In this document: piece by piece, positions 7,735 to 57,623 of the stretch | How the letters are laid out: every line of letters begins with the position of its first letter | Position numbering within the stretch: the stretch's first letter is position 1 | NCBI RefSeq assembly: GCF_055900595.2 | Contig: NZ_JBVWEU010000003.1 | Reading direction: 5' to 3' (one strand) | Source of the DNA: a plasmid | DNA length: 64,000 nt | Notes under the pieces: generated by a model | What the model was told of the DNA's origin: nothing | What the model saw: only the letters and a program-made list of their open reading frames with translations | The model's database searches: none | Position numbers and translations under genes: made by a program

Positions 7735-8339
7735 AAAATGTTGCATTTATTTTTTCAGGGAGAGGTAGTCTCGTTACAACTGTTTTGGATGCTATTAGAG
7801 ATAGTAAGACACAATCCAGATTATCCTTAATGATTACAAATAATGTCGAGTTTGATGAGAAATTTACCCCTAAGGGTGTTGATTTGGTTGTTTTAGACCG
7901 GAATGAGTATGTGAAAAGGAATGATTTTGAGAAAAAGATAATATTTGAGTTGAAAAAAAGAAATATTAGCTTAGTTATTCTTGGAGGTTTTAAATTCATT
8001 TTTTCAGAAAAATATGTTGATCTTTTTGGAAACATTACAATAAATACACATCCATCATTACTTCCTGCTTTTCCTGGAGATAAGGCGCAACAAAGGGCTT
8101 TAGCTAAAGGAGTTATATATACTGGTGCAACAATTCATTTTATAAATGAGCATGTTGATGATGGACCTATTATTGACCAAGAGGTTGTCAGGGTTGAAGA
8201 GGGTATGACGGAGTATGAGCTAAAGGAACAAATTATTGAAGTTGAAAAGATAATGATTTACAGATCTGTTAAGGCATTTCTCGACGGAAGATTATATTTA
8301 AAAAACAATCAGGTTATATATGGGGTTGATGATGTATAA
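7731..8339 (+). CDS. PurN-like formyltransferase (GAR transformylase fold)
   Basis: 202 aa; N-terminal FIFSGRGS, NTHPSLLPAFPG (Asn/His catalytic pair) and DDGPIIDQ (catalytic Asp) match the PurN family; ATGA overlap with the upstream gene. Confidence 0.8.
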   Translation: MKNVAFIFSGRGSLVTTVLDAIRDSKTQSRLSLMITNNVEFDEKFTPKGVDLVVLDRNEYVKRNDFEKKIIFELKKRNISLVILGGFKFIFSEKYVDLFGNITINTHPSLLPAFPGDKAQQRALAKGVIYTGATIHFINEHVDDGPIIDQEVVRVEEGMTEYELKEQIIEVEKIMIYRSVKAFLDGRLYLKNNQVIYGVDDV

Positions 8340-15934: not shown

Positions 15935-16015
15935 ATATTGAAGATAACAAGATAACAAGATAACAAGATAACAAGATAACAAGATAACAAGGTGTTATCT
16001 TGTTATCTCAAGGTG
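15935..16015. repeat. Iteron array: tandem 8-bp AAGATAAC units (about 6-7 copies) plus inverted GGTGTTATCTTGTTATC copies, downstream of the par operon
   Basis: Direct read of the sequence; a related array lies upstream at 17065-17120. Confidence 0.6.
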
Positions 16016-16318
16016 TTATCTTTGTTTTACTTCTGCTATCAATCGTGATACCTCTGTTTTTGATAGTGTTTTAAGTGCTTCTACCGCCGCCCTGACAACA
16101 TCAGAACGATTCACTCTGCCTTTACCTGAAACCATCTCAGCCGTTATAAGGGCATCAATGTCTTTTAGGTTTTCTTCAAAAAAAGAAATACTCACTGGTT
16201 TTGCTTTGCTTACAACCGATGATTTATCTGATGACTTTTTGGTATTATCAAGGCCAGCCGTGCCACCGTTAATAAATGCTGCCTCGTCACGAGGTGAAGT
16301 GTTTGCTCTATTTCTCAC
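16016..16318 (-). CDS. Small partition/centromere-binding protein (ParG/ParB-like, tentative)
   Basis: 100 aa, overlaps the parA stop; basic N-terminus; non-ATG (GTG) start per ORF track. Confidence 0.45.
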   Translation of the reverse strand: MRNRANTSPRDEAAFINGGTAGLDNTKKSSDKSSVVSKAKPVSISFFEENLKDIDALITAEMVSGKGRVNRSDVVRAAVEALKTLSKTEVSRLIAEVKQR

Positions 16319-16941
16319 AGAATAACCTCTTTCACTAACGCTTCGATTTCTTGCTGGGCTTTATCATTTTGCGTTTCAAAAATTGTCATTGATTCGGCCC
16401 AAGCATCTCGATGTGCTTTACGATCACATACCCGGGAGTTTGCCAGATGCATTTCAGGGTAATCCTTAAGTACTTCAGCTGCCTCATTGGCTTCATTAAC
16501 AAACATATTTGTGGGCGTCATGTTTAAAACGAGATATCCCCGAACATCCCCATTAAAATCTTTTGCTGCTGTAAAAACGGAGCATGTATGAGGCACAACA
16601 TCCAGGTCCATCTGAGATGGGCGCAAAGGAGAAATGAATACATCTGCGGCCATCAATCCACTACGCATTTCTGCGCTATCACGGCCAGCACAGTCTGCAA
16701 TAACAAAATCATAGGATTTTTCGTGTTCCTTTAACATGGCTTTGATGTTACCTGTCGCGCCTGTAACCGGAATATGAGGGAGATCTTCAGGGCGATTGTT
16801 GTACCAGGTTAATACTGATTTCTGGTCATCTGCGTCGACAATAATCACTCTATTGCCTAGTGACATCAGATACGCAGCTATAGATACCGCCAGTGTACTT
16901 TTACCTACCCCACCCTTTTGACTACCTAATACTATTATCAT
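16315..16941 (-). CDS. parA: ParA-family partition ATPase (type Ib)
   Basis: Deviant Walker A motif KGGVGKST at the N-terminus; 208 aa. Confidence 0.9.
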   Translation of the reverse strand: MIIVLGSQKGGVGKSTLAVSIAAYLMSLGNRVIIVDADDQKSVLTWYNNRPEDLPHIPVTGATGNIKAMLKEHEKSYDFVIADCAGRDSAEMRSGLMAADVFISPLRPSQMDLDVVPHTCSVFTAAKDFNGDVRGYLVLNMTPTNMFVNEANEAAEVLKDYPEMHLANSRVCDRKAHRDAWAESMTIFETQNDKAQQEIEALVKEVIL

Positions 16942-16949
16942 TATAGCCT

Positions 16950-17120
16950 CATATTAAGTTGTTAAGTTAACAACTTAATATTGCCATCTGAACGCGAATC
17001 ATGCAATTATTTTTGTTATATTAACAACTTAACAAGTTATTAAGTATTTGATTTATAGATTAATTAATATAACAAGATAACAAGACAACAAGATAACAAG
17101 ATAACAAGATAACAATATTA
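16950..17120. promoter_or_regulatory. par promoter/operator region with palindromes (AAGTTGTTAAGTTAACAACTTAA) and upstream AAGATAAC iterons
   Basis: Read from sequence immediately upstream of the parA start. Confidence 0.5.
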
Positions 17121-31412: not shown

Positions 31413-32330
31413 GTGAGTAAGAAGAAAACCACCACGACGCCCACGCCGCATGATGCCGCGTTCCGGTCGTTCCTGGCGAACCCCGACGTCGCCAGAGATT
31501 TTCTGGAACTGCATCTTCCGGCGGAGTACCGGCAGTTGTGCGACCTGTCCACGCTGAAGCTGGAACCCGCCACCTTTGTTGAGCCGGACCTGCATCAGTA
31601 CGCCAGCGATATCCTCTGGAGTGTGAAAACCACCGGGGGTGAAGACGGCTATATTTATACGCTCATCGAGCACCAGAGCACCGAAAATCTGTACATGCCT
31701 TTCCGCATGTTACGTTACAGTGTGGCGGCGATGCAGAGACATCTGGAGCAGCACAAAACATTGCCACTGGTGATTCCGGTGCTGTTCTATCATGGTGAGC
31801 GCAGCCCGTACCCGTACAGCATGAACTGGCTGGACTGTTTTGAGGATCCGGCACTTGCGGCTAAAATATACACAAAGCCGTTTCCGCTGGTTGATATCAC
31901 TGTCGTTGATGACAATGAAATCATGAACCATCGCCGGATGGCCGCACTGACGCTGCTGATGAAGCATATCCGTCAGCGGGATATGCTGATGTGTCTGGAC
32001 AACCTGGTCAGGGCACTGCAGGACATCCAGGATGAAGAGCAGATTACAGTTCTTTTCAACTATCTGCTTAATGGCAGCGAACATGTAACGGTTAAATTTT
32101 TGCAGACGCTGGCGCAGCGACTGCCGCAGCACGAGGACAGCATTATGACACTGGCAGAACGTCTTAAGCAGGAAGGAATACAGCAGGGAATACAGCAGGG
32201 AATACAGAAAGGCCGCATGGAGGAGAAGCTGGATATTGCGCGTCAGCTTCAGAAAACGGGAATGTCATTTGCACAAATCTGTCAGATCACCGGACTTTCT
32301 GAAGCCGAACTGAAAAAAATCGCCCACTGA
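31413..32330 (+). CDS. Rpn-family (YhgA-like) recombination-promoting nuclease
   Basis: GTG start 7 bp after AGGAGG; N-terminal HDAAFRSFLANPDVARDFLELHLP and YTLIEHQST motifs typical of Rpn proteins; C-terminal QQGIQQGIQQGIQKG tail. Confidence 0.7.
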   Translation: MSKKKTTTTPTPHDAAFRSFLANPDVARDFLELHLPAEYRQLCDLSTLKLEPATFVEPDLHQYASDILWSVKTTGGEDGYIYTLIEHQSTENLYMPFRMLRYSVAAMQRHLEQHKTLPLVIPVLFYHGERSPYPYSMNWLDCFEDPALAAKIYTKPFPLVDITVVDDNEIMNHRRMAALTLLMKHIRQRDMLMCLDNLVRALQDIQDEEQITVLFNYLLNGSEHVTVKFLQTLAQRLPQHEDSIMTLAERLKQEGIQQGIQQGIQKGRMEEKLDIARQLQKTGMSFAQICQITGLSEAELKKIAH

Positions 32331-38198: not shown

Positions 38199-40499
38199 TC
38201 AGTATTTTTCGTCAGTTGTTGGTTGTGCTCCACATGATTTCTGGGGATGATCATTATTTATTGTCTGCGATTTATTATTTTCAGCGACCGGTAACAGTAT
38301 CTCCAGGGGGAGCAGGGTATTCAGAATCGCCTTCACTGAAGGTATATCTTCAGGACCGGAGTGTTCCTCTTCCGGACGATTCAGTGTGATATAACATACC
38401 CGGCGTTCTTCCCTGGTTGTGTTATTGATAGTGTGCACAGCCTTTTTCCACAGTTCGTTTGCCCGGGATTCGATATCTGTATCATATTGCGGAAGCAGAT
38501 CCAGTGATGTCTGCGCTGTTGCCAACCGGCGCTGGAATGTATCAATGATACGGTAAGGCTCTGTACGGTTTTTACGACGTTTACGGGATGGTTTTGCTGT
38601 CAGTACACCAATAATGCTGCTGACATGCTCCGGTGTGGGAAAACGGCGCTGCACTGTCCTGGGGACAAGACGGCGGAGACGTTCCAGTCGGGGGGCTTCA
38701 ACAGAGATATAACGGTTGATGACCACTGGATCACTGTCGCAACTTTTTTCGCTGTCCGGAATATACACAGAGGCTGACGGCACCACATCCCCCTGGAAAA
38801 CGGTAAAGAATTCACCGGCATTCAGTTTGATTAAATCCTGCACGTTGATTTTGCTTTCCATCTGGATTGTGATCTGGTTACCGTCCACCCAGGACTCTCC
38901 CATCACACCATCGTGGCGCTGCAGGCTGCCCATTCTGGCGCGGGCCTCTTCACCGGCGGCATTTTTCACCGTCCTTGCTGTTTTGTCGTCACTGACAATG
39001 CGTCCGGCGAATTTGGTGCCGGCGTTCTGCATCAGCGTGGCGGTGTTGGTGGCAGAAGTCTGCCCTTCGATTCGCTCCTGATCCTGCGCCGTCATTATCA
39101 GGGAGAACTCCAGTGAACGTACCTGGGTGGCCTCCACTGCAATGCGGTCCGTGTAGTAGGCACCGACTTCGTCAAGGATACAGATATAGGGGAAGCGGCC
39201 TTTGTATTTTTTGACTTCCAGGGTCTGTGCATCTGTGCCTTCCAGGCGGTAGCCCAGGTCACGGGCGAGGATCATGCTCTGCTGGGTGATGAACATACGA
39301 CCGAGTGCCGACGTGGTATGGGCTGATGTGTCCAGTGCGGGGATCATCACAATCAGAATTCGGTCGCTGTGGATACTGTCGCGAATATCGATGTCGCCGG
39401 CATCTGCCGCAAAGACGTCCCCGAAGGTTTCGGCAAAGGTTGTGAACGTTTCCGAGAACTGACCGGAGAGATAAGCATGCTGTTTACGGGGCTCCTCAGT
39501 CCAGGCTGACGGCGTTCTCACCAGTGACATATCGAATCCCGGGACATCCTGCAGGTAGTTTCGCAGTGGTGCGATAGCTTCTTCCGGCCACTGGTCATCA
39601 AGGCCACGGCAATAGAGTTTTGCCATCCCTTCCAGCGTCATATGTTCCCGTAACATATGCAGGGACATGGTTTTACCTTCCCGGACGCACCAGAATTTTG
39701 TGCCAAAGACCAGGGCCTTGTTCATGGCTATCGCCCGTGACTGCCATTCACCGCCCTGAACGTTCTGGGGCAGCATGGACTGCATGGTTTCGGCGGTGAA
39801 GGCTTCGGTGCTGAATGCGAACGGGTTCCAGGTGTTTGACTGTGGGCGGGATTTATCGCCACTCTGAATGACTTCACTGCGGGATTTTCCGCCGTTCATG
39901 AAGTTGATGACCTCGATATCATCCTCCCGGCCAAAACGTCGGGAGAGATACCAGATTGTCCTCGTGGTATCGTTCTGTGCCTTTCCGTCAACAAAGGTAA
40001 AGCCTCTTCCCCAGCAGAGCGGGTTGAGCAGCCAGGCAAAGGTGGTTTCTGTTTTACCGCCACCGGTGGTGGAAAAAAATATGATATGCCGGGTGAGGTC
40101 ATCCATGCTCAGCCAGAGCTCACGACCGATATCGTTGATACGGCGGTAACCGACATAAAAAATCCCCCGTGCGGGGGATGTTTCATCTGCTTCATACTGA
40201 AACAGGGTAGGCCAGAAGCTGAAGAGGCTTCGCCTGACCTTTCTGTCCTGGGAGGGGTCATCAAGGCTGAGCGTCATGGGCATACGCAGGGGGCATCGCC
40301 AGCGTTGCAGCGTGAATATCACGGAGGTGACCAGGGTGAACAGCAGACAGACAGGAAGGGCCAGTGGCCATATCAGGGCCGTAATGATACTGCCAGCCAG
40401 ACACAGACCAATGATGTTCAGGTTGTGCAGTGCATTCCACAGCGGGTTTCCCCAGGCCGTGCGGTGTATGAGGTCAGGATTAACGTGATGCTGGCTCAT
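38199..40499 (-). CDS. trbC: TrbC-like conjugal transfer protein (membrane-anchored ATPase-type)
   Basis: 766 aa; N-terminal transmembrane helices then Walker A STTGGGKTE; last gene of a trbA-trbB-trbC array convergent on oriT. Confidence 0.75.
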   Translation of the reverse strand: MSQHHVNPDLIHRTAWGNPLWNALHNLNIIGLCLAGSIITALIWPLALPVCLLFTLVTSVIFTLQRWRCPLRMPMTLSLDDPSQDRKVRRSLFSFWPTLFQYEADETSPARGIFYVGYRRINDIGRELWLSMDDLTRHIIFFSTTGGGKTETTFAWLLNPLCWGRGFTFVDGKAQNDTTRTIWYLSRRFGREDDIEVINFMNGGKSRSEVIQSGDKSRPQSNTWNPFAFSTEAFTAETMQSMLPQNVQGGEWQSRAIAMNKALVFGTKFWCVREGKTMSLHMLREHMTLEGMAKLYCRGLDDQWPEEAIAPLRNYLQDVPGFDMSLVRTPSAWTEEPRKQHAYLSGQFSETFTTFAETFGDVFAADAGDIDIRDSIHSDRILIVMIPALDTSAHTTSALGRMFITQQSMILARDLGYRLEGTDAQTLEVKKYKGRFPYICILDEVGAYYTDRIAVEATQVRSLEFSLIMTAQDQERIEGQTSATNTATLMQNAGTKFAGRIVSDDKTARTVKNAAGEEARARMGSLQRHDGVMGESWVDGNQITIQMESKINVQDLIKLNAGEFFTVFQGDVVPSASVYIPDSEKSCDSDPVVINRYISVEAPRLERLRRLVPRTVQRRFPTPEHVSSIIGVLTAKPSRKRRKNRTEPYRIIDTFQRRLATAQTSLDLLPQYDTDIESRANELWKKAVHTINNTTREERRVCYITLNRPEEEHSGPEDIPSVKAILNTLLPLEILLPVAENNKSQTINNDHPQKSCGAQPTTDEKY

Positions 40500-41604
40500 T
40501 GTGATTATCCTCGGTATCTGTGGCTTTCAGGAACAGGCTGACGGTAGTGGCGTCTTTCAGGATGCCGGACGGCAGGTGCCAGCCGGTATCGGATAACACC
40601 CATGGGGTACCGCCAAAACCGAACTGGCGGAAAGCCTGGTTATTGACATCGATGGCAGCACGAGCAGCGGTCAGACACTTTTCATCCGGTGCAGCCGGTG
40701 CATCGACGGTGGGTGCCATACCACCGTCTGCGGAATACAGCTGATGCCATCCGGTCGCCCGTTTTTGTGCGTCCGGTTCACACAGCAGTGGCGCAGTCCG
40801 GTTTGTGCTGGCCTCTCCGCCGATTACGGAGACCGGATAAATCACCACGCTGAATTCCCGGGCCAGTTGCTTAAGCGCGGGCTCCAGAAGACGGCAGTTG
40901 ATGCATGCGGGGTCAAGGAAGGCGTAGAGTGTGCGTTCATGACCAGTGGAGAGATTAATGGTGAACATACCCCGGTCCGCGTTGCGTTTAAGTACTGTGG
41001 ACAGATTACGGCGGGCCTCAGCGGCCTGAACGTGTTGTTCTTCCGTCACTGCCGTCGGGGCGGGGGCAGAAGAAGGTTCCTGCTGTGTGGGAGCCGGGCG
41101 GGCCGGGATGCTGTTAACATGATGTTCCGTATGTGGGCGTGGTGTCTCTGTGTCGGTTACTGGTTCAGCTCTCCATTCCTGAGATGTAGGGTAAGCCAGC
41201 GTGGAAGGGGGCTCTGCCTTCATCCAGTGGTAACCTGCAACTGTCGCCGGCAGAGCAATTCCGGCGATAAAGCCACACATCAGTGTCCGCCAGAAGCCAT
41301 ATTTCCGGGAGGGATGTTTTCCTTTTCCGGCATATTCGGCATCCAGGCAGGCATCAATCGCTGAGAGCATTCTGCCGATGTGATGTCCGGGACGTTCTGC
41401 ATCAACGGTATCAACAAGCACCGTTTCGGTTATTTCGCGAAAAGGGGAACTGAAGGACAGGTGCATCAGCCTGTTATTACGGTTAATCAGTGCGCCCAGT
41501 TCTGTTACCGGCAGGATGGCAATCACCTCCCGATTACCGTCAGGGTACAGGGCGGTCAGGGACAGGTGTTTATTATTCAGTGTTGCAGTGTAGTGGATGG
41601 TCAT
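40480..41604 (-). CDS. trbB: TrbB-like thiol-disulfide isomerase (DsbC-like)
   Basis: 374 aa with a thioredoxin-type CxxC (DPACINC) in the C-terminal half. Confidence 0.7.
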   Translation of the reverse strand: MTIHYTATLNNKHLSLTALYPDGNREVIAILPVTELGALINRNNRLMHLSFSSPFREITETVLVDTVDAERPGHHIGRMLSAIDACLDAEYAGKGKHPSRKYGFWRTLMCGFIAGIALPATVAGYHWMKAEPPSTLAYPTSQEWRAEPVTDTETPRPHTEHHVNSIPARPAPTQQEPSSAPAPTAVTEEQHVQAAEARRNLSTVLKRNADRGMFTINLSTGHERTLYAFLDPACINCRLLEPALKQLAREFSVVIYPVSVIGGEASTNRTAPLLCEPDAQKRATGWHQLYSADGGMAPTVDAPAAPDEKCLTAARAAIDVNNQAFRQFGFGGTPWVLSDTGWHLPSGILKDATTVSLFLKATDTEDNHNEPASR

Positions 41605-42962
41605 TGTTCTTTTTCCTTGTCGGCGGGATCCTGTTTTTCGGTGGTTTCGGTGGTTTCGGTGGTTTCGGTGGTTTCGGTGGTTTCGGTGGTTTCGGTGGTT
41701 TCGGTGGTTTCGGTGGTTTCGGTGGTTTCGGTGGTTTCGGTGGTTTCACCAGTGTCAGTGTCTTCGTCGTTATCATGGCGGCGGGGTATCACGTCATCCG
41801 TGAGTGACCAGCGGGTCCTGATCTGACGTTTACGATCGCGATCTGGCTGAGGTTCGTCCCATATCAGGCCCAGCCCCAGCATGTCCCGTCGAAGCCCTTC
41901 AATGGCCTCTTCCACACAGGGTTCCGGGCAGGGGAGGCCGAGACGGCTGGCTTCATTTTCTGCCCGGGCAACGGCCACCACGCCGGCCCCTTCGATGAAG
42001 CCTTTTGTGGTGTTTGCCCGGTGAAGGGCATAGAAGAGCGTCCGGTCAACGCCCTTGAGCCACAGCCAGTTCGGAGGCGTCAGGCGCAAATCATGTGCGT
42101 AAAGCCAGACCAGACCGCTGCGAACGTAACGGTGCTGCCTGAGCCACTTTTGTGCGCCTTCTGTTTTGATGACCCGGATAAAGGCGTTTCTGGCCAGTGA
42201 ATACACCGGCGTGCTGAAACGCCCCTGGTCCCGTTTACTTTTGAGCCTGCAGGAGAGATTGAGGTTGTTCATCAGGGCTACCGCTGCTTTCCGGTCACCG
42301 AGGAAGAACTGCAGGCCAAAGATGGCAAAGAGCGCTTTTTCATGTGGGGCCATGTCTTTCCAGCTGGTCAGTGGTTGCCCCAGTTGCGCCATGAAGCACT
42401 GGCGTGTGGACGCAACATCGAGCTGCATGTTGCGGATAAGGTTGTTCTGCTCCACAAAGGCTTCGGGGGTTAGTGCGACACGGCGCTCGGGACGTTTTTG
42501 TCCGTGGAAGAGTCTGTTGTTGTCTCCATCAGCCAGAACGGGGGCGATCGCCGGTGACAGAGCTGAAAAAATATGGGGCAGTGTGTGGATATTCAGTGGC
42601 CTGCGGGTAAAACGGGGCTGGGCCGGATGGTGAAACCACATCCACAGAAAGCCGAATGTCATGGGAAGCAGAATCAACCAGAGGATCCCCACTGTCCGGG
42701 ACATAACATCCAGCCACTGGCTGAAAGTGATGGTTGCCGCGTTGTTAGCAGTGATGGCCAGCAGGTTGTAACGGGGGGCGGCAAAGTTGTGAAAGGGCCC
42801 CCAGTCAATCATGCCCCACAGTGTGTGCAGGATCAGGCAGGAGGCGAAGACGATTTCAGGTAAAAAGCGCCAGATGATAATCGCAAAGAGCAGGCATATG
42901 GCACCGACGATATACCATATAGCCATTGGATCTTCGGCGGCAGACGTCTGTTGGTAAGACAC
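41601..42962 (-). CDS. trbA: TrbA-like membrane protein with C-terminal (ETT)n repeat
   Basis: 453 aa; multiple transmembrane helices; the C-terminus is encoded by tandem 9-bp repeats. Confidence 0.7.
   Translation of the reverse strand: MSYQQTSAAEDPMAIWYIVGAICLLFAIIIWRFLPEIVFASCLILHTLWGMIDWGPFHNFAAPRYNLLAITANNAATITFSQWLDVMSRTVGILWLILLPMTFGFLWMWFHHPAQPRFTRRPLNIHTLPHIFSALSPAIAPVLADGDNNRLFHGQKRPERRVALTPEAFVEQNNLIRNMQLDVASTRQCFMAQLGQPLTSWKDMAPHEKALFAIFGLQFFLGDRKAAVALMNNLNLSCRLKSKRDQGRFSTPVYSLARNAFIRVIKTEGAQKWLRQHRYVRSGLVWLYAHDLRLTPPNWLWLKGVDRTLFYALHRANTTKGFIEGAGVVAVARAENEASRLGLPCPEPCVEEAIEGLRRDMLGLGLIWDEPQPDRDRKRQIRTRWSLTDDVIPRRHDNDEDTDTGETTETTETTETTETTETTETTETTETTETTETTETTEKQDPADKEKEQ
41637..41755. 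repeat. Tandem 9-bp repeat GGTGGTTTC, about 13 copies (in-frame, encodes Glu-Thr-Thr repeats at the TrbA C-terminus)
   Basis: Direct read of the sequence; on the coding strand GAA-ACC-ACC. Confidence 0.9.
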
Positions 42963-43104
42963 GGGGATTCCTCCATAGATGAATGGATAAATTTCGGGAT
43001 TAAGTCGGGTGGCATGAATGCGAATCAGCGCCGGTAATAACCGGACAGGAATGAGTTCAACAGGACATTTTCACAGAGAAGAGCGTGGGAGACAGGTACA
43101 AAAA

Positions 43105-43135
43105 AACCGACTGGTGAGGTCGGTTTTTTTGCTAT
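43105..43135. terminator. Bidirectional terminator-like hairpin (A-run / CCGACC…GGTCGG / T-run)
   Basis: Symmetric stem flanked by A7 and T7 runs, downstream of trbA start region. Confidence 0.4.
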
Positions 43136-43292
43136 TCCGGGGCGGAGTTGGTGACTCTGACCGAAAGGGAAATCACTCTACATCTAACACCATCATAGTA
43201 GGCTGCGCTTCTCTTTTTTGCAATCAGAAAAATGACTATAATCGCTCCGTTAGCTCTGTCTGGTGATGCTTCTGCCCTTTAATAAAATATGC

Positions 43293-43469
43293 TCAGGTTA
43301 AAAATCGAAAACCTTCCTGCACTTCCTGTGCCTGTTCCCGTGAGTCAAACATGAGCCGGCTTTTACCCGGAACTCCCCAGGAAATATATTCTACATCCAC
43401 CCACCATTTTCCGTATTCTTCATATGGTCCGGATATCACTTTAGTGACAAATGCATCAACCAGGTTCAT
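43293..43469 (-). CDS. Hypothetical 58-aa protein between nuc and trbA
   Basis: ORF I translated myself (MNLVDAFVTKVISGPYEEYGKWWVD…), below the track's 60-aa cutoff. Confidence 0.25.
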   Translation of the reverse strand: MNLVDAFVTKVISGPYEEYGKWWVDVEYISWGVPGKSRLMFDSREQAQEVQEGFRFLT

Positions 43470-43619
43470 TTTTACACCTTTCTGTTATTCTGCTTATTAC
43501 GACCAGCAGACAGCAAATATTAAAAATAACGCGGCGGTAAAAATGGCAATTTTTTCCCATACTGTATTTTTTCCATTTATTTGCTTTGAAATGTTTTTTT
43601 GCTTCATATCAGTAAATGA

Positions 43620-44111
43620 TTATTTTTTATTCTGTTTCCTCCAGGCCCATGGTGGCACCGGATTTTCATCTGCCCATAATCCCCGTTTAAGGGCACGGGC
43701 ATCGCGCTGGAGAGCCGGGAGAGTATAGTCCTTGTTGTAGTCCGGGTATACCCAGGCCGCTCCCTTCCTGATTTGCTCACGATTCGCTTCAGTGCCGTCA
43801 GCGGTATAGACTCTGCCGAGAATACGGTTATATCTGTCGGTCTGTAAGTATTGTACGGTTACAGGCTTTCCGGCCACCAGGTCCTTCAGCTGAGTGGCTG
43901 ACCAGCGTCCAAAGGGCTGTTTCTTTTCCGGTGCATCAATATTTGCCAGGCGGACCCTGACAGTTTTTTTATCCTGTAATATTTCCAGTGTATCACCATC
44001 AAGAACGCGGATAACGTTTCCCTGAATCTGTGCAGCGCAGAGGGAACCTGAAAAAATAATAGCGAGAGAGAACATATATTTTATCATTTTATTACATCCT
44101 TTTTTATTCAT
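43620..44111 (-). CDS. nuc: Secreted thermonuclease-family endonuclease
   Basis: Signal peptide then staphylococcal-nuclease-like motifs (RVLDGDTLE…RLANIDAPE…GLWAD). Confidence 0.8.
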   Translation of the reverse strand: MNKKGCNKMIKYMFSLAIIFSGSLCAAQIQGNVIRVLDGDTLEILQDKKTVRVRLANIDAPEKKQPFGRWSATQLKDLVAGKPVTVQYLQTDRYNRILGRVYTADGTEANREQIRKGAAWVYPDYNKDYTLPALQRDARALKRGLWADENPVPPWAWRKQNKK

Positions 44112-44208
44112 GAAAAACAGGCGGCGTTTATATTACGGAATAATATCGTTAAGTTGAGTTTATGTTTCCGGTAATGTAATGCTTCACGCAGAGGGTAATG
44201 ACTCCAAC

Positions 44209-49555: not shown

Positions 49556-52500
49556 CAGAGGTGATATCCCTGCTTACGGATGAGTTCCGCAGCCAGATCA
49601 TGGATGACGTTTTCACTGTCATGTGTACGGGCGCGGTGTTCTATCAGTGAGGTGGCTGAACCACGGGGAAAGTTTTCTGCCAGGATCTGGCGTGCCCGCA
49701 GTGACCCGAGCTCCTGCGTCAGCGCACGTCTCAGGGCGCTGTCTTTGGGTGAGGAATTCAGTGCCCACAGCTCCAGTGGACCGAGAGTGAATTTCAGGAT
49801 CCGGGCCAGCGTACCGTTTTTTACACGGAACACAGCCAGTACCGGGACACCGCTGCCATCCGGTGCAGCCCCTTCCGGCATTTTCAGGAAGCGCCGCAGG
49901 GTGACTTCAGGGACACCAAAATTATCCCGCAGAAACGGAATTTCGTCAGGGCGGTAACGCAGCAACCAGAGGGTGTTGGCGGATTTGAGAACTGCCGGTG
50001 GATAGTCCTGCAGTAGCTGGGTGCTCAGCACTGTGCGTATCCCGAACTTACGCTGCTCCAGCTCCTGGGTGTCCAGGGCTTCCCAGATGAAATTGATCCC
50101 TTTTGCATTGTGCAGTTCGTCATAGACTTTGGTCTTGACCTCCTGATCAAGCTGTTCAATGCGGCGGAAAATCACCTCATGGTAGCGTGGGTCGAGATTT
50201 TTCCGTATTTCCTCCTGATACTGCGGCAGGACAAAATCCCCGCCGGCGATTTGTCCTGCCAGCAGGTACATGATGCCGGTGCGCAGACGCCCGGCAGGTG
50301 TCTTGTCACCGGCCACATTGTTCAGATCAACGGCCACAACGCGGGTGTCGGGGCTGAGCATAAACCGGGTACAGCCGGACATCATCGGGTAGTCACTGTG
50401 TCCCTGATCGAGGGCACGGCGGATGTAGTCCAGTAACAATTCTGCTGAGTTATCGCGCTGAACTGTGCCGAACACATCCCGGATGGATGGCTGTCCCAGC
50501 AGGGCGGACATTTCAGCCAGCAGGGGCATGGCCTGGTAGTGTGCCCGCTGGGCTGCGGGGATATTGCCAGCCATATGCAGCATGTCCCTGATTTCAAACC
50601 AGGTGGCAGCATTCCACCATCCAGCGTCATGTTGTTCTGCGATGCCACTCTCTTCCAGGGCGAGATCCACAAGGGGCTCTGTTCCTGCACGGTACAGTCT
50701 GGGGTTGTTTTCGCCATACTCCCTGAAGGCCAGATCCACCAGGTTGCTTATGATTTGCCGGGTGTCACCGGGATTACAGGGCTGACCGGTGCCGGTATCC
50801 ACGCACAGTGCGCAGAGTACAGATACCATGAAGTTCTTTTCCGGGGTGGCGGGTTTTTTAGCACCGTACATCACATCAAACAGGTTACGGGTGTGTTCCG
50901 GATCATTGCTCAGAATGATCCCCACGGCTTCGTCCTTTCTCTGCTCCGGCAGGCTGTCACGGATAAGCTGTACCAGTCCCTGTGCACTGAATCCCTTGTC
51001 GATATAGGCAATGAAAGGCAGGTTCTTCTGGGCTGAGGCTATCTGGATCTCCGACAGTGCGTTGATGAGTACCGATTTGCCCAGACCGGGTGCGCCGGGC
51101 GTCAGTTCCGTGTGCTTGTTCTGTTGTGACGATGCCAGCGCGACCTCCCATGCAGAGCCGTCCTCGGTGTGCATCATCAGATTTCCCTGTCCCCGCCAGA
51201 CAGAGCCGGCCCTGTTCAGGGGAAACAGGGAAAGGGCGTGTGAAAGGGGCGGGTAAAGGGGGACTGGACCGGAACCGTGGGAGGCCGCCAGAACCGTGTT
51301 CACCCAGGCACGTCTCGGATCACCGAAGGTGGTGGTGGTGCCGCATACCCCCCAGCCTTCCAGCGCAGATTTCAGGAGAGCCTGGTTACGGGTACAGACT
51401 TCCCGGCTGTTTCCCCATGTGGTGGCAACAATGGTCATGATACAGACCGGATCATGTTTGTTGATGTCATTCAGCATCATCACCGAGTCATACATGGGCC
51501 GGAGAGGGGAAATAAAGCTGCTGTAGGTCAGCAGGGTTTTCTTGACCCCAAGCGCCTTCATGCCGCCGGGCATCAGATCCATCCGGATACGCCAGGGGAT
51601 TGCGCGGGGCACATCCCTGACCAGCTGGTTGAATGTCCGCAGATTCTGGGGGGGCAGGGTAATGGCGACCATACCGTGCCAGAGGTCACCGGCCTTTATC
51701 AGGCTGCCGTGTGTTTCAGGCTGTGTGGTGAATAACTGCAGATTCAGCGACGGTGCGTGGAATACAGAGGTATCCTCGCCCTGTCGCCAGCCGGCAGGAC
51801 GGGCATCTTCAGGCAGATGAGGCTGCCATACTGCAGGTGTGCTGTTGCGCTCCAGTTGACGGCGGATTTCCCGTCCCACTTCATGAATATCTATCAGGCG
51901 AACCAGCAGACCATCAGAATCATGTGTCAGGGCCTGCTCCAGCGTGTCCAGAAAGGCGTCATGCCGTATTTTGAGTGCGGAAAGTGTCCAGCGCCATGGA
52001 TCCTGCGCAAATCGGGCTGGCGGAGCGTGTTCAGCGAGTTTCCTGATACGGGTCTGGTGGTCCTTGCGATCGGTCCGGCTCAGCAGTTCTTCAGAGCTCC
52101 AGACGGTCAGCCAGCAGCGTTCCCGGACAAGCCAGGGGGTGAGCGTGGTGACTTTTTCATCCAGAACGTCCTGAAGCAGGATCCCCGTACGTGCGATGGA
52201 TTTTCGCTGGGGTAAGAGCATGGCTTCGATTTCATCCCTTCCACGCTCCGGATCGCGTTCGAAAACAAAACTGATTTTGTGACCGGTGTTTTTCCAGGCA
52301 GTGTTCATTCGCTCTGCCAGCGCTGTAATCAGTGATTCCAGTGTGCCGGGGGCTGTCAGGTCCGGGTTTTCATCCATTTCTTTCAGGGCACCGCTGATTT
52401 CAAAGACGGAAAGGTAATACCCCTGTTTGGTGGTGGCAATGTAGGGGGCTTTCAGCCAGGGGCGGCGTTCGCGGTCCTGCTGGTCCAGACCGATGACGGT

Positions 52501-56295: not shown

Positions 56296-57623
56296 GGATA
56301 ACTTTCCTGTTGTATGCCGTAGCGTTGCCGCATTTCATTCTGTTTACGGAGGACAGCTGCCTGGATTCTGTCAGAGGCCTGGTGCTCGGCCTCCGCCTGG
56401 GTGAGCGGACGTCCTGAGGATGGTGGCACTGAAGGGATACTCCCGGAGGAGGTGGGACTGATATCGTTGCTCATGACCGGCTCAACAAACAGAATTGAGA
56501 CGACCTCGCCCCGTGATACTGTCACCTGACGGTAAGGTTCGCTCTCTGCCTGGCGGGTCAGCAGCTCGCTGCCCCGTTCGGCCATGCCGCCTGCCATGAC
56601 GCCGGCCAGCGCCCTGCCATCAGGCATTCCCACCCTGCCGGTAAGACTGCCGTAGTTTCCCTGAAGGATCTGTGTGTTGGCGTCTTTGTAAAGACTCCCT
56701 CCCTTTCCCGCACCGCCAAGTATGGACGGCAGAACAATGTGCTTAAACCAGCGGTGGTTCACGTCGCTGGCCACGGTTGACATTCCTGTTCGTTCATTCA
56801 GGGCATATGCATTGACCTTCAGAAACATGCCCCGCCACATCATCCGGTCAAAGTGGATATCCATTCCCTTGCCGGCGAGTCTGGCGTCCTGGCTGTAGAG
56901 AACGGCTCCGGCCCATGGCCCGGCAGGTACGGAGGCCACCACGCGGGAGACCGCATTGTCAGAGTCCACTTCGGTGTCGATGTAAGCCGGTACGCGGGTC
57001 AGTGCCGGTATCAGCTGGATCCCCTGACGTGTAGCCGGTGTTGCCAGACTCGTCTCCTGCAGACGGGGATGCTGTGATGTAACGGTACCGGACGGTGACG
57101 CATGAGGGGCTGTCCCGGGCGCGCCGGTGGTGCTCCACATGGCAGCTGCCACTACCGGTGGCCGGGCATCCTGATGCTGTGTGTTGATACGGGCAAGCAG
57201 TTTCTGTAATGCCTCACGCCGTTTTTCCCGGGCCGTCTGATCTTCCTGAGGAGGGGATGCGTTTTGCCCGGAAGTGCCTGACTGATCATCGGGGGGATTA
57301 TCCCTTTTCTGATCGTTTCCGGTATCGGTATCCAGTCCCCGGGGCAGACTGGCGATAAACGTCTCGTTATTACGTAACGCTTCTGCAGCACCACGTTCAT
57401 TGTCAGCCCGCAGTAAATCCCGGTAGTGCTGTGTCTCCATCACGTTCCGTCCGCCGCCGGACGTTGTGCTGTTGATATTGACTGACGAGAGCGATGCGCT
57501 GTTTTCGGGGGAAAGCCAGGTGAGCAGCAGGTATCCGCCCCCGATGATAATCACGCCCCCGAGAACCAGCAGGGCTGACAGTTTTTTGCCGGACTTTGCG
57601 GCTGTGTCCTGTTCTGCGCTCAT
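56292..57623 (-). CDS. traO: TraO-like protein (DotG/IcmE-type core component)
   Basis: 443 aa with an N-terminal transmembrane anchor and Gly/Pro-rich regions. Confidence 0.6.
   Translation of the reverse strand: MSAEQDTAAKSGKKLSALLVLGGVIIIGGGYLLLTWLSPENSASLSSVNINSTTSGGGRNVMETQHYRDLLRADNERGAAEALRNNETFIASLPRGLDTDTGNDQKRDNPPDDQSGTSGQNASPPQEDQTAREKRREALQKLLARINTQHQDARPPVVAAAMWSTTGAPGTAPHASPSGTVTSQHPRLQETSLATPATRQGIQLIPALTRVPAYIDTEVDSDNAVSRVVASVPAGPWAGAVLYSQDARLAGKGMDIHFDRMMWRGMFLKVNAYALNERTGMSTVASDVNHRWFKHIVLPSILGGAGKGGSLYKDANTQILQGNYGSLTGRVGMPDGRALAGVMAGGMAERGSELLTRQAESEPYRQVTVSRGEVVSILFVEPVMSNDISPTSSGSIPSVPPSSGRPLTQAEAEHQASDRIQAAVLRKQNEMRQRYGIQQESYP

Follow-up and report, generated by a model that had tools for sequence, protein, structure and literature searches.

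Coding VNTRs of bacteria, of the kind used in MLVA, consist of perfect units repeated head to tail, each a multiple of three bases long. They keep the reading frame, encode a low-complexity protein segment and are polymorphic among near-identical genomes. The array that we describe here, which lies in the gene trbA within a 64-kb stretch of plasmid DNA (the window), resembles them in all of these respects: its units are arranged head to tail inside a real coding sequence, their length is divisible by three, and their copy number is polymorphic among closely related sequences. The setting differs, in that the trbA array encodes part of the cytoplasmic tail of a plasmid-borne conjugation coupling-complex subunit and no part of a surface or antigenic protein. 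Phase-variable contingency loci offer a second comparison, since they also have a hypermutable intragenic tract that changes by slippage. Such loci, in which the repeat unit is not divisible by three or occupies a promoter position, switch on and off. In contrast, the 9-bp unit of trbA never shifts the frame, all alleles observed are in frame, and the outcome would be a modulation of length. In-frame coding VNTRs are themselves familiar, but the array in trbA appears to have gone undescribed. No published description of it was found in the literature searched, coverage of which was incomplete, and among IncI1 plasmids a “9 bp tandem repeat” has been reported solely next to pilJ (PMC8004404).

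The protein has two described relatives. Homology with Legionella DotM runs the full length of TrbA, taking in the N-terminal membrane region and the DotM_C domain; the DotL-like partner corresponds to TrbC, and the central arginine is conserved (R314 of DotM, R307 of TrbA). Nevertheless, the two proteins are only about 23% identical (PMC5802825). DotM ends about 18 residues past the domain, whereas the TrbA of the window carries a 95-residue extension that includes the repeat. Furthermore, TrbA serves DNA conjugation, and substrate binding of the type performed by DotM is only putative for it. The nearer relative is the TrbA of IncI1-type (R64-like) plasmids, an ortholog from the same trbABC operon that is essential for transfer. 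It has about 76% amino-acid identity with the TrbA of the window and the motif LIWDEPQPDRDRKR.I.T.WSLTDD in common with it.

The preliminary description of this DNA placed the array inside the trbA coding sequence, and both the gene name and the placement are correct according to the annotation of relatives and the match to Pfam DotM_C (PF23127; E = 2.6e-47, 161.7 bits against a cutoff of 27). Near-identical records carry the annotation “IncI1-type conjugal transfer protein TrbA.” Legionella IcmP/DotM chains in the PDB likewise match TrbA (for 6sz9_B, TrbA residues 4-358 against 9-362), and TrbA has the N-terminal membrane region, with hydrophobic segments at residues 10-52 and 90-111, together with collinearity to DotM over its full length. 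The NCBIfam model DotM_IcmP_IVB (NF033890) aligns TrbA residues 16-359 with model positions 3-347 of 356, at a score of 71.5 bits that falls below the cutoff of 230. Judged by these matches, TrbA is a DotM homolog and not a DotM equivalog, and its gene product is identified by homology as a DotM-related subunit of the I-type (type IVB) conjugative coupling complex. The order trbA-trbB-trbC (Table 1) recurs in annotated IncK2/Z plasmids of types MPF_I and MOBP, and a MOBP relaxase is encoded nearby in the window. By typing, the closest plasmids are IncK2/Z, MPF_I and MOBP, which places them in the B/O/K/Z branch of the I-complex. As read from the sequence, the overlap of trbA and trbB is a site of translational coupling.

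Table 1. Features of the trbA region, with positions numbered along the window
Feature	Position	Strand	Description	Evidence
trbA CDS	41601..42962	-	453 aa, GTG start, TGA stop	ORF, Pfam DotM_C, PDB matches, relatives' annotation
DotM_C cytoplasmic domain	41889..42410	-	residues 185-358, net charge +11	Pfam, charge, AlphaFold2 helices mostly of high pLDDT
Predicted disordered C-terminal tail	41604..41837	-	residues 376-453, contains the array	AlphaFold2, charge
9-bp tandem array	41636..41747	-	12 full GAAACCACC units (41640-41747) and a 4-base partial unit	Tandem Repeats Finder (TRF), regex, translation
trbA stop/trbB start overlap	41601..41604	-	ATGA, located 36 nt beyond the array in the coding direction	ORF coordinates, sequence
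trbB	40480..41604	-	374 aa, DsbC-family thioredoxin-like	ORF, weak Pfam Thioredoxin_2 match, relatives' “DsbC family protein”
trbC	38199..40499	-	766 aa, type IV coupling protein (DotL-like)	ORF, Pfam TraG-D_C, relatives' annotation

Tandem Repeats Finder reports a period-9 array of 12.4 copies with 100% matches, no indels and a score of 224, the highest among only 7 tandem arrays in the window (the runner-up scores 102). An exact regular-expression search returns 12.0 exact GGTGGTTTC units on the plus strand. The chance of eleven exact re-occurrences of a 9-mer is about 4^-99, and a chance origin of the array is negligible. About 13 perfect units spanning 41637-41755 had been described initially. 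The perfection of the array is real, but there are 12 full units, and by both methods the array ends at 41747, beyond which the sequence (accagtgtcagtg...) lies outside the repeat. With a unit of 9 bp it is a minisatellite rather than the “microsatellite” it was called, and slippage would proceed in steps of 9 bases instead of simply “in multiples of three.” The minus strand is the coding strand, each unit reads as Glu-Thr-Thr, and (Glu-Thr-Thr)12 makes up residues 406-441. The Glu-Thr-Thr units are thus in frame, as first noted, but they do not form the very end of the protein: a further 12 residues (EKQDPADKEKEQ) follow before the stop codon, which puts the array near the C terminus and not at it.

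Within these final residues, the window has C at position 41630 where every relative examined has G, and Asp445 consequently replaces His (KQDPADKEKEQ versus KQHPADKEKEQ). This is the sole difference, within a 501-nt query across the array, from IncK2/Z plasmids that are 99.8% identical.

Other reading frames through the repeat are also open. A 67-aa ORF at 41573-41776 on the same strand, in the +1 frame, would encode (Lys-Pro-Pro)n; this ORF results from the repeat itself and shows no sign of expression. Plus-strand ORFs encoding (Phe-Gly-Gly)n, (Val-Val-Ser)n and (Trp-Phe-Arg)n were likewise rejected as genes, because frames of this kind arise automatically from a repeat inside trbA and would nearly vanish in relatives with one copy.

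Whether the array is of fixed length was assessed by comparison with related plasmids. The 501-nt query matched 471 PLSDB records, and copy number was inferred for an evenly spaced 60 of them by subtracting the record span from the query span. Counts for n = 1 through 13 were 7, 5, 4, 7, 6, 9, 7, 2, 2, 3, 1, 5 and 2. Among complete E. coli genomes in RefSeq, 392 records matched (in 380 of 5,426 genomes), and 59 informative sampled rows gave n = 1 in 8, 2 in 13, 3 in 4, 4 in 7, 5 in 7, 6 in 4, 7 in 6, 8 in 4, 9 in 3, and 10, 12 and 13 in 1 each. These distributions describe 119 evenly spaced rows out of about 860 records, and the true range may be wider; nor are the two samples phylogenetically independent, as PLSDB and RefSeq have records in common and clones from outbreaks appear more than once. 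In both samples, all length differences are multiples of 9. The anticipated variation in tail length between isolates, without loss of frame, is therefore borne out, and the repeat number is far from invariant, spanning 1-13 copies.

Inferred copy numbers agreed with counts in fetched sequences for 11 of 11 sampled records checked. By sequence, there are 13 copies in p1-S1-CAM-01-A; 12 in pMTY14697, pECOED and the window; 9 in the SB18003 plasmid; 8 in p14EC033g; 5 in pMS7163B, pJNE170426-1 and pCT (the last fetched separately by accession); 4 in pO26-CRL-125; 3 in S. sonnei p201702782-2; 2 in the 2013C-3277 plasmid; and 1 in pCFSAN083829_3. The 12 copies of the window belong to the upper tail of the sampled distribution. 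For two plasmids with 5 copies, genetic evidence on trbA has been published: the gene is essential for transfer in pMS7163B (PMC10286972) and in pCT (PMC6868128), and both plasmids are conjugation-proficient (same sources). A gene length of 1263 nt given for pCT (PMC6868128) could be taken to indicate a 1-copy allele, but its sequence has 5 copies and the length differs by choice of start codon.

The window has no near-identical partner for a comparison of rates, because its trbA region is mosaic. In the trbC-trbB-trbA interval (39200-44200), one IncK2/Z group matches the 3' 500 nt of trbA, along with the beginning of trbB, at 99.8% identity, and the best 5-kb match in PLSDB, at only 98.3%, belongs to a different group that includes the 1-copy pCFSAN083829_3. 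This mosaic pattern suggests recombination within the transfer region. Three related plasmids were therefore used to compare the rate of array change with that of nucleotide substitution. A 13-copy E. coli plasmid and a 3-copy S. sonnei plasmid have 9 mismatches in 33.9 kb and an ISKpn26 insertion common to both, while 3-copy and 12-copy plasmids have 4 mismatches over about 24.6 kb. In the 2.2 kb immediately flanking the array, the 12-, 13- and 3-copy alleles have zero differences. The comparison establishes directly that the array shifts by many units while the backbone barely gains substitutions.

Differences among plasmid lineages are also informative. In the lineage of the window, all units are identical at the DNA level. 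A second lineage (~92% identity) has 2-5 copies of the synonymous unit AGTGGTTTC, with one Glu-Ile-Thr variant. The purity of the units and the variation of a synonymous unit point to expansion of the DNA itself rather than to selection on a peptide pattern. Among the sampled rows, the pure multi-copy lineage spans 3-13 copies and the low-copy lineage only 2-5, and a lineage in which one pure unit precedes a degenerate GAAACCCGG unit (Glu-Thr-Arg) always has n = 1. The IncI1-type ortholog serves as a control. It is 402 aa in length, ends in ...LPRPPATDHEF, and lacks both the array and any ETT unit. At ≥95% identity it has about 1,430 matching records in PLSDB; in a sample of 16 rows, 15 have a length of exactly 1206 nt at ≥98.5% identity, and the remaining match is in three pieces spanning 1210 nt. 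The overall pattern is the one expected if the array changes by replication slippage, as we infer: instability would then require a repeat tract and grow with its length.

The protein segment in which this variation occurs has little predicted structure. An AlphaFold2 model built from a 19-sequence alignment is confident and helical for the N-terminal membrane region and the DotM-like domain, whereas residues 376-453 have pLDDT < 50 and no secondary structure. The segment is also strongly acidic. The last 95 residues of TrbA include 17 Glu and 12 Asp, and each ETT unit contributes three residues and one negative charge; residues 393-453 have a net charge of -17 at 12 units and would have -6 at 1 unit. 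In the family alignment, a motif after the DotM domain is kept (LIWDEPQPDRDRKRRIRTNWSLTDDV), and a conserved Trp-containing motif (LIWDEPQPDRDRKRQIRTRWSLTDDV) precedes the acidic tail that bears the array. Past the motif, tails are 10-12 aa long in most homologs, 22 aa in homolog P0004 and about 90 aa, rich in Pro and Ala, in homolog P0045. The extreme C terminus is acidic in every member of the family and otherwise unconserved. On the strength of the model and alignment, it appears to be a length-tolerant, acidic, disordered region of a DotM-like subunit, although its universal acidity hints at some constraint on charge and hence at less than complete neutrality.

The ends of these tails differ in one further respect. 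Among the TrbA homologs examined (P0003-P0039), most of those outside the B/O/K/Z group have short, acidic ends with a terminal Phe (...EDDEQPF, ...ATDHEF, ...EPENEF), and B/O/K/Z TrbA proteins end in ...KEKEQ. This conserved Phe may serve as a docking motif, one that was lost in the B/O/K/Z lineage.

We consider it probable, at about three chances in four, that the array is a hypermutable VNTR that changes by slippage, always in frame, within a disordered acidic tail that tolerates differences in length, and that its variation is largely neutral. Identical GAAACCACC units would misalign during replication (slipped-strand mispairing), and each slip would add or remove whole 9-bp units. Because slips would involve only whole units, every one of them would leave intact the reading frame, the 12 residues at the end of TrbA and the trbB start that is coupled through ATGA. 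Tolerance of length changes is suggested by the variation of the extreme tail in both length and composition across the TrbA family. Given such tolerance, copy number could drift largely neutrally, over the range of 1-13 found in natural plasmids.

A more consequential role for the tail is conceivable, though we regard it as unlikely. The acidic (ETT)n segment might dock on the basic surface of its own DotM-like domain, or on a partner such as TrbC, and thereby tune transfer. There the tail might act as a pseudo-substrate or as a spacer of adjustable length, such that the number of copies would set substrate recruitment and balance conjugation rate against cost. Precedent comes from Legionella DotM, which binds acidic Glu-rich peptides through R196/R197, R217 and R314/R315 (PMC5802825). 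R314, the sole highly conserved site among these, aligns with the invariant R307 of TrbA, in the sequence LWLKGVDR, but outside Legionella there is little conservation of R196, R197 and R217 (PMC5802825). A contrast of charge exists between DotM_C (+11) and the tail (-17 with 12 units, -6 with 1 unit), and an acidic terminus in every family member also fits with docking. Beyond electrostatics, however, we found nothing in favour of such a role, and AlphaFold2 docks the tail without confidence (pLDDT 30-39). Moreover, the relaxase encoded in the window does not end in a Glu-rich segment (its last 30 aa have a net charge of -1), so an acidic signal with which the tail would compete is not in evidence. 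Conjugation of pCT is costly (PMC6868128), and a tuning mechanism would therefore be open to selection, yet the spread of copy numbers is broad and flat and the units are pure at the DNA level, a picture that resembles drift.

By analogy with DotM, the most specific version of this proposal is slightly less probable still: that the (ETT)n tail is an intramolecular pseudo-substrate, tunable by copy number, which would sit on the basic, DotM-like, substrate-recruiting surface of either TrbA or the TrbA-TrbC coupling complex. If it were true, slippage would generate subpopulations of a plasmid with differing conjugation rates and costs, and the array would provide a graded, heritable and reversible “volume control” of horizontal transfer.

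It is very improbable that the array acts instead at the level of DNA or RNA, either as iterons bound by a protein or through an mRNA structure that modulates the coupled translation of trbB. The trbB start, which forms an ATGA with the trbA stop, is indeed only 36 nt downstream of the array. However, it lies inside a translated ORF, its unit has no palindromic or known binding motif, and the Shine-Dalgarno region of trbB is located outside the array and conserved at any copy number. Many plasmids annotated as conjugative have just 1-2 units, which indicates that the array is not required. Least credible of all is that the true number of copies is constant and that the differences are artefacts of assembly or polishing: a 112-bp perfect array does approach the length of short reads, an array collapsed or expanded in whole units would likewise yield multiples of 9, and collapsed arrays in short-read assemblies could explain part of the variation, but identical alleles turn up in many complete assemblies that were made independently, by different laboratories and with different technologies (pCT and pMS7163B both have 5 copies, many plasmids of S. 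sonnei have 6, and pECOED, pMTY14697 and the window have 12), and short alleles of 3-6 units (27-54 bp) differ even though they are easily assembled.

As a slippage-prone VNTR, the array supplies a fast-evolving marker for a widespread family of resistance plasmids, one that separates near-identical plasmids and could sharpen the tracing of outbreaks. Of the complete E. coli genomes searched here, about 7% carry IncB/O/K/Z-type plasmids, which occur also in Shigella sonnei. The same variability creates pitfalls, in that it can produce spurious trbA “alleles,” spurious protein clusters and differences in annotation, and the array may collapse in short-read assemblies. The initial remark that such arrays are assembly hazards is thus a reasonable one for a perfect array of 112 bp. 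In addition, the natural alleles form a series of 1-13 units that is available for probing the role of the TrbA tail.

Differences in annotation are already visible in public records. Alleles of 10-12 units are annotated as “hypothetical protein” and other long alleles only as “conjugal transfer protein TrbA,” while shorter ones are annotated as “IncI1-type conjugal transfer protein TrbA” (records that document this gap are NC_011754.1, NZ_CP141244.1, NZ_OR916391.1, NZ_CP019011.1 and NZ_CP097366.1). This suggests that a long repeat pushes TrbA outside the specific naming model.

The window contains other repeats as well. Two arrays of about six 8-bp units each (AAGATAAC / ATAACAAG) are found at 15941-15991 and 17069-17115, with inverted copies at 15993-16008. 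They flank a minus-strand operon of two genes, which encode a 208-aa ParA-like Walker ATPase (16315-16941; GSQKGGVGKST) and a 100-aa partner (16016-16318). From its sequence organization, the operon with its arrays looks like a putative partition cassette that has centromere or operator iterons on both sides. Four more short tandem repeats, with a period of 12 or 18 and 2-3.4 copies, are located at 32175-32207, 7900-7935, 51230-51261 and 56581-56620.
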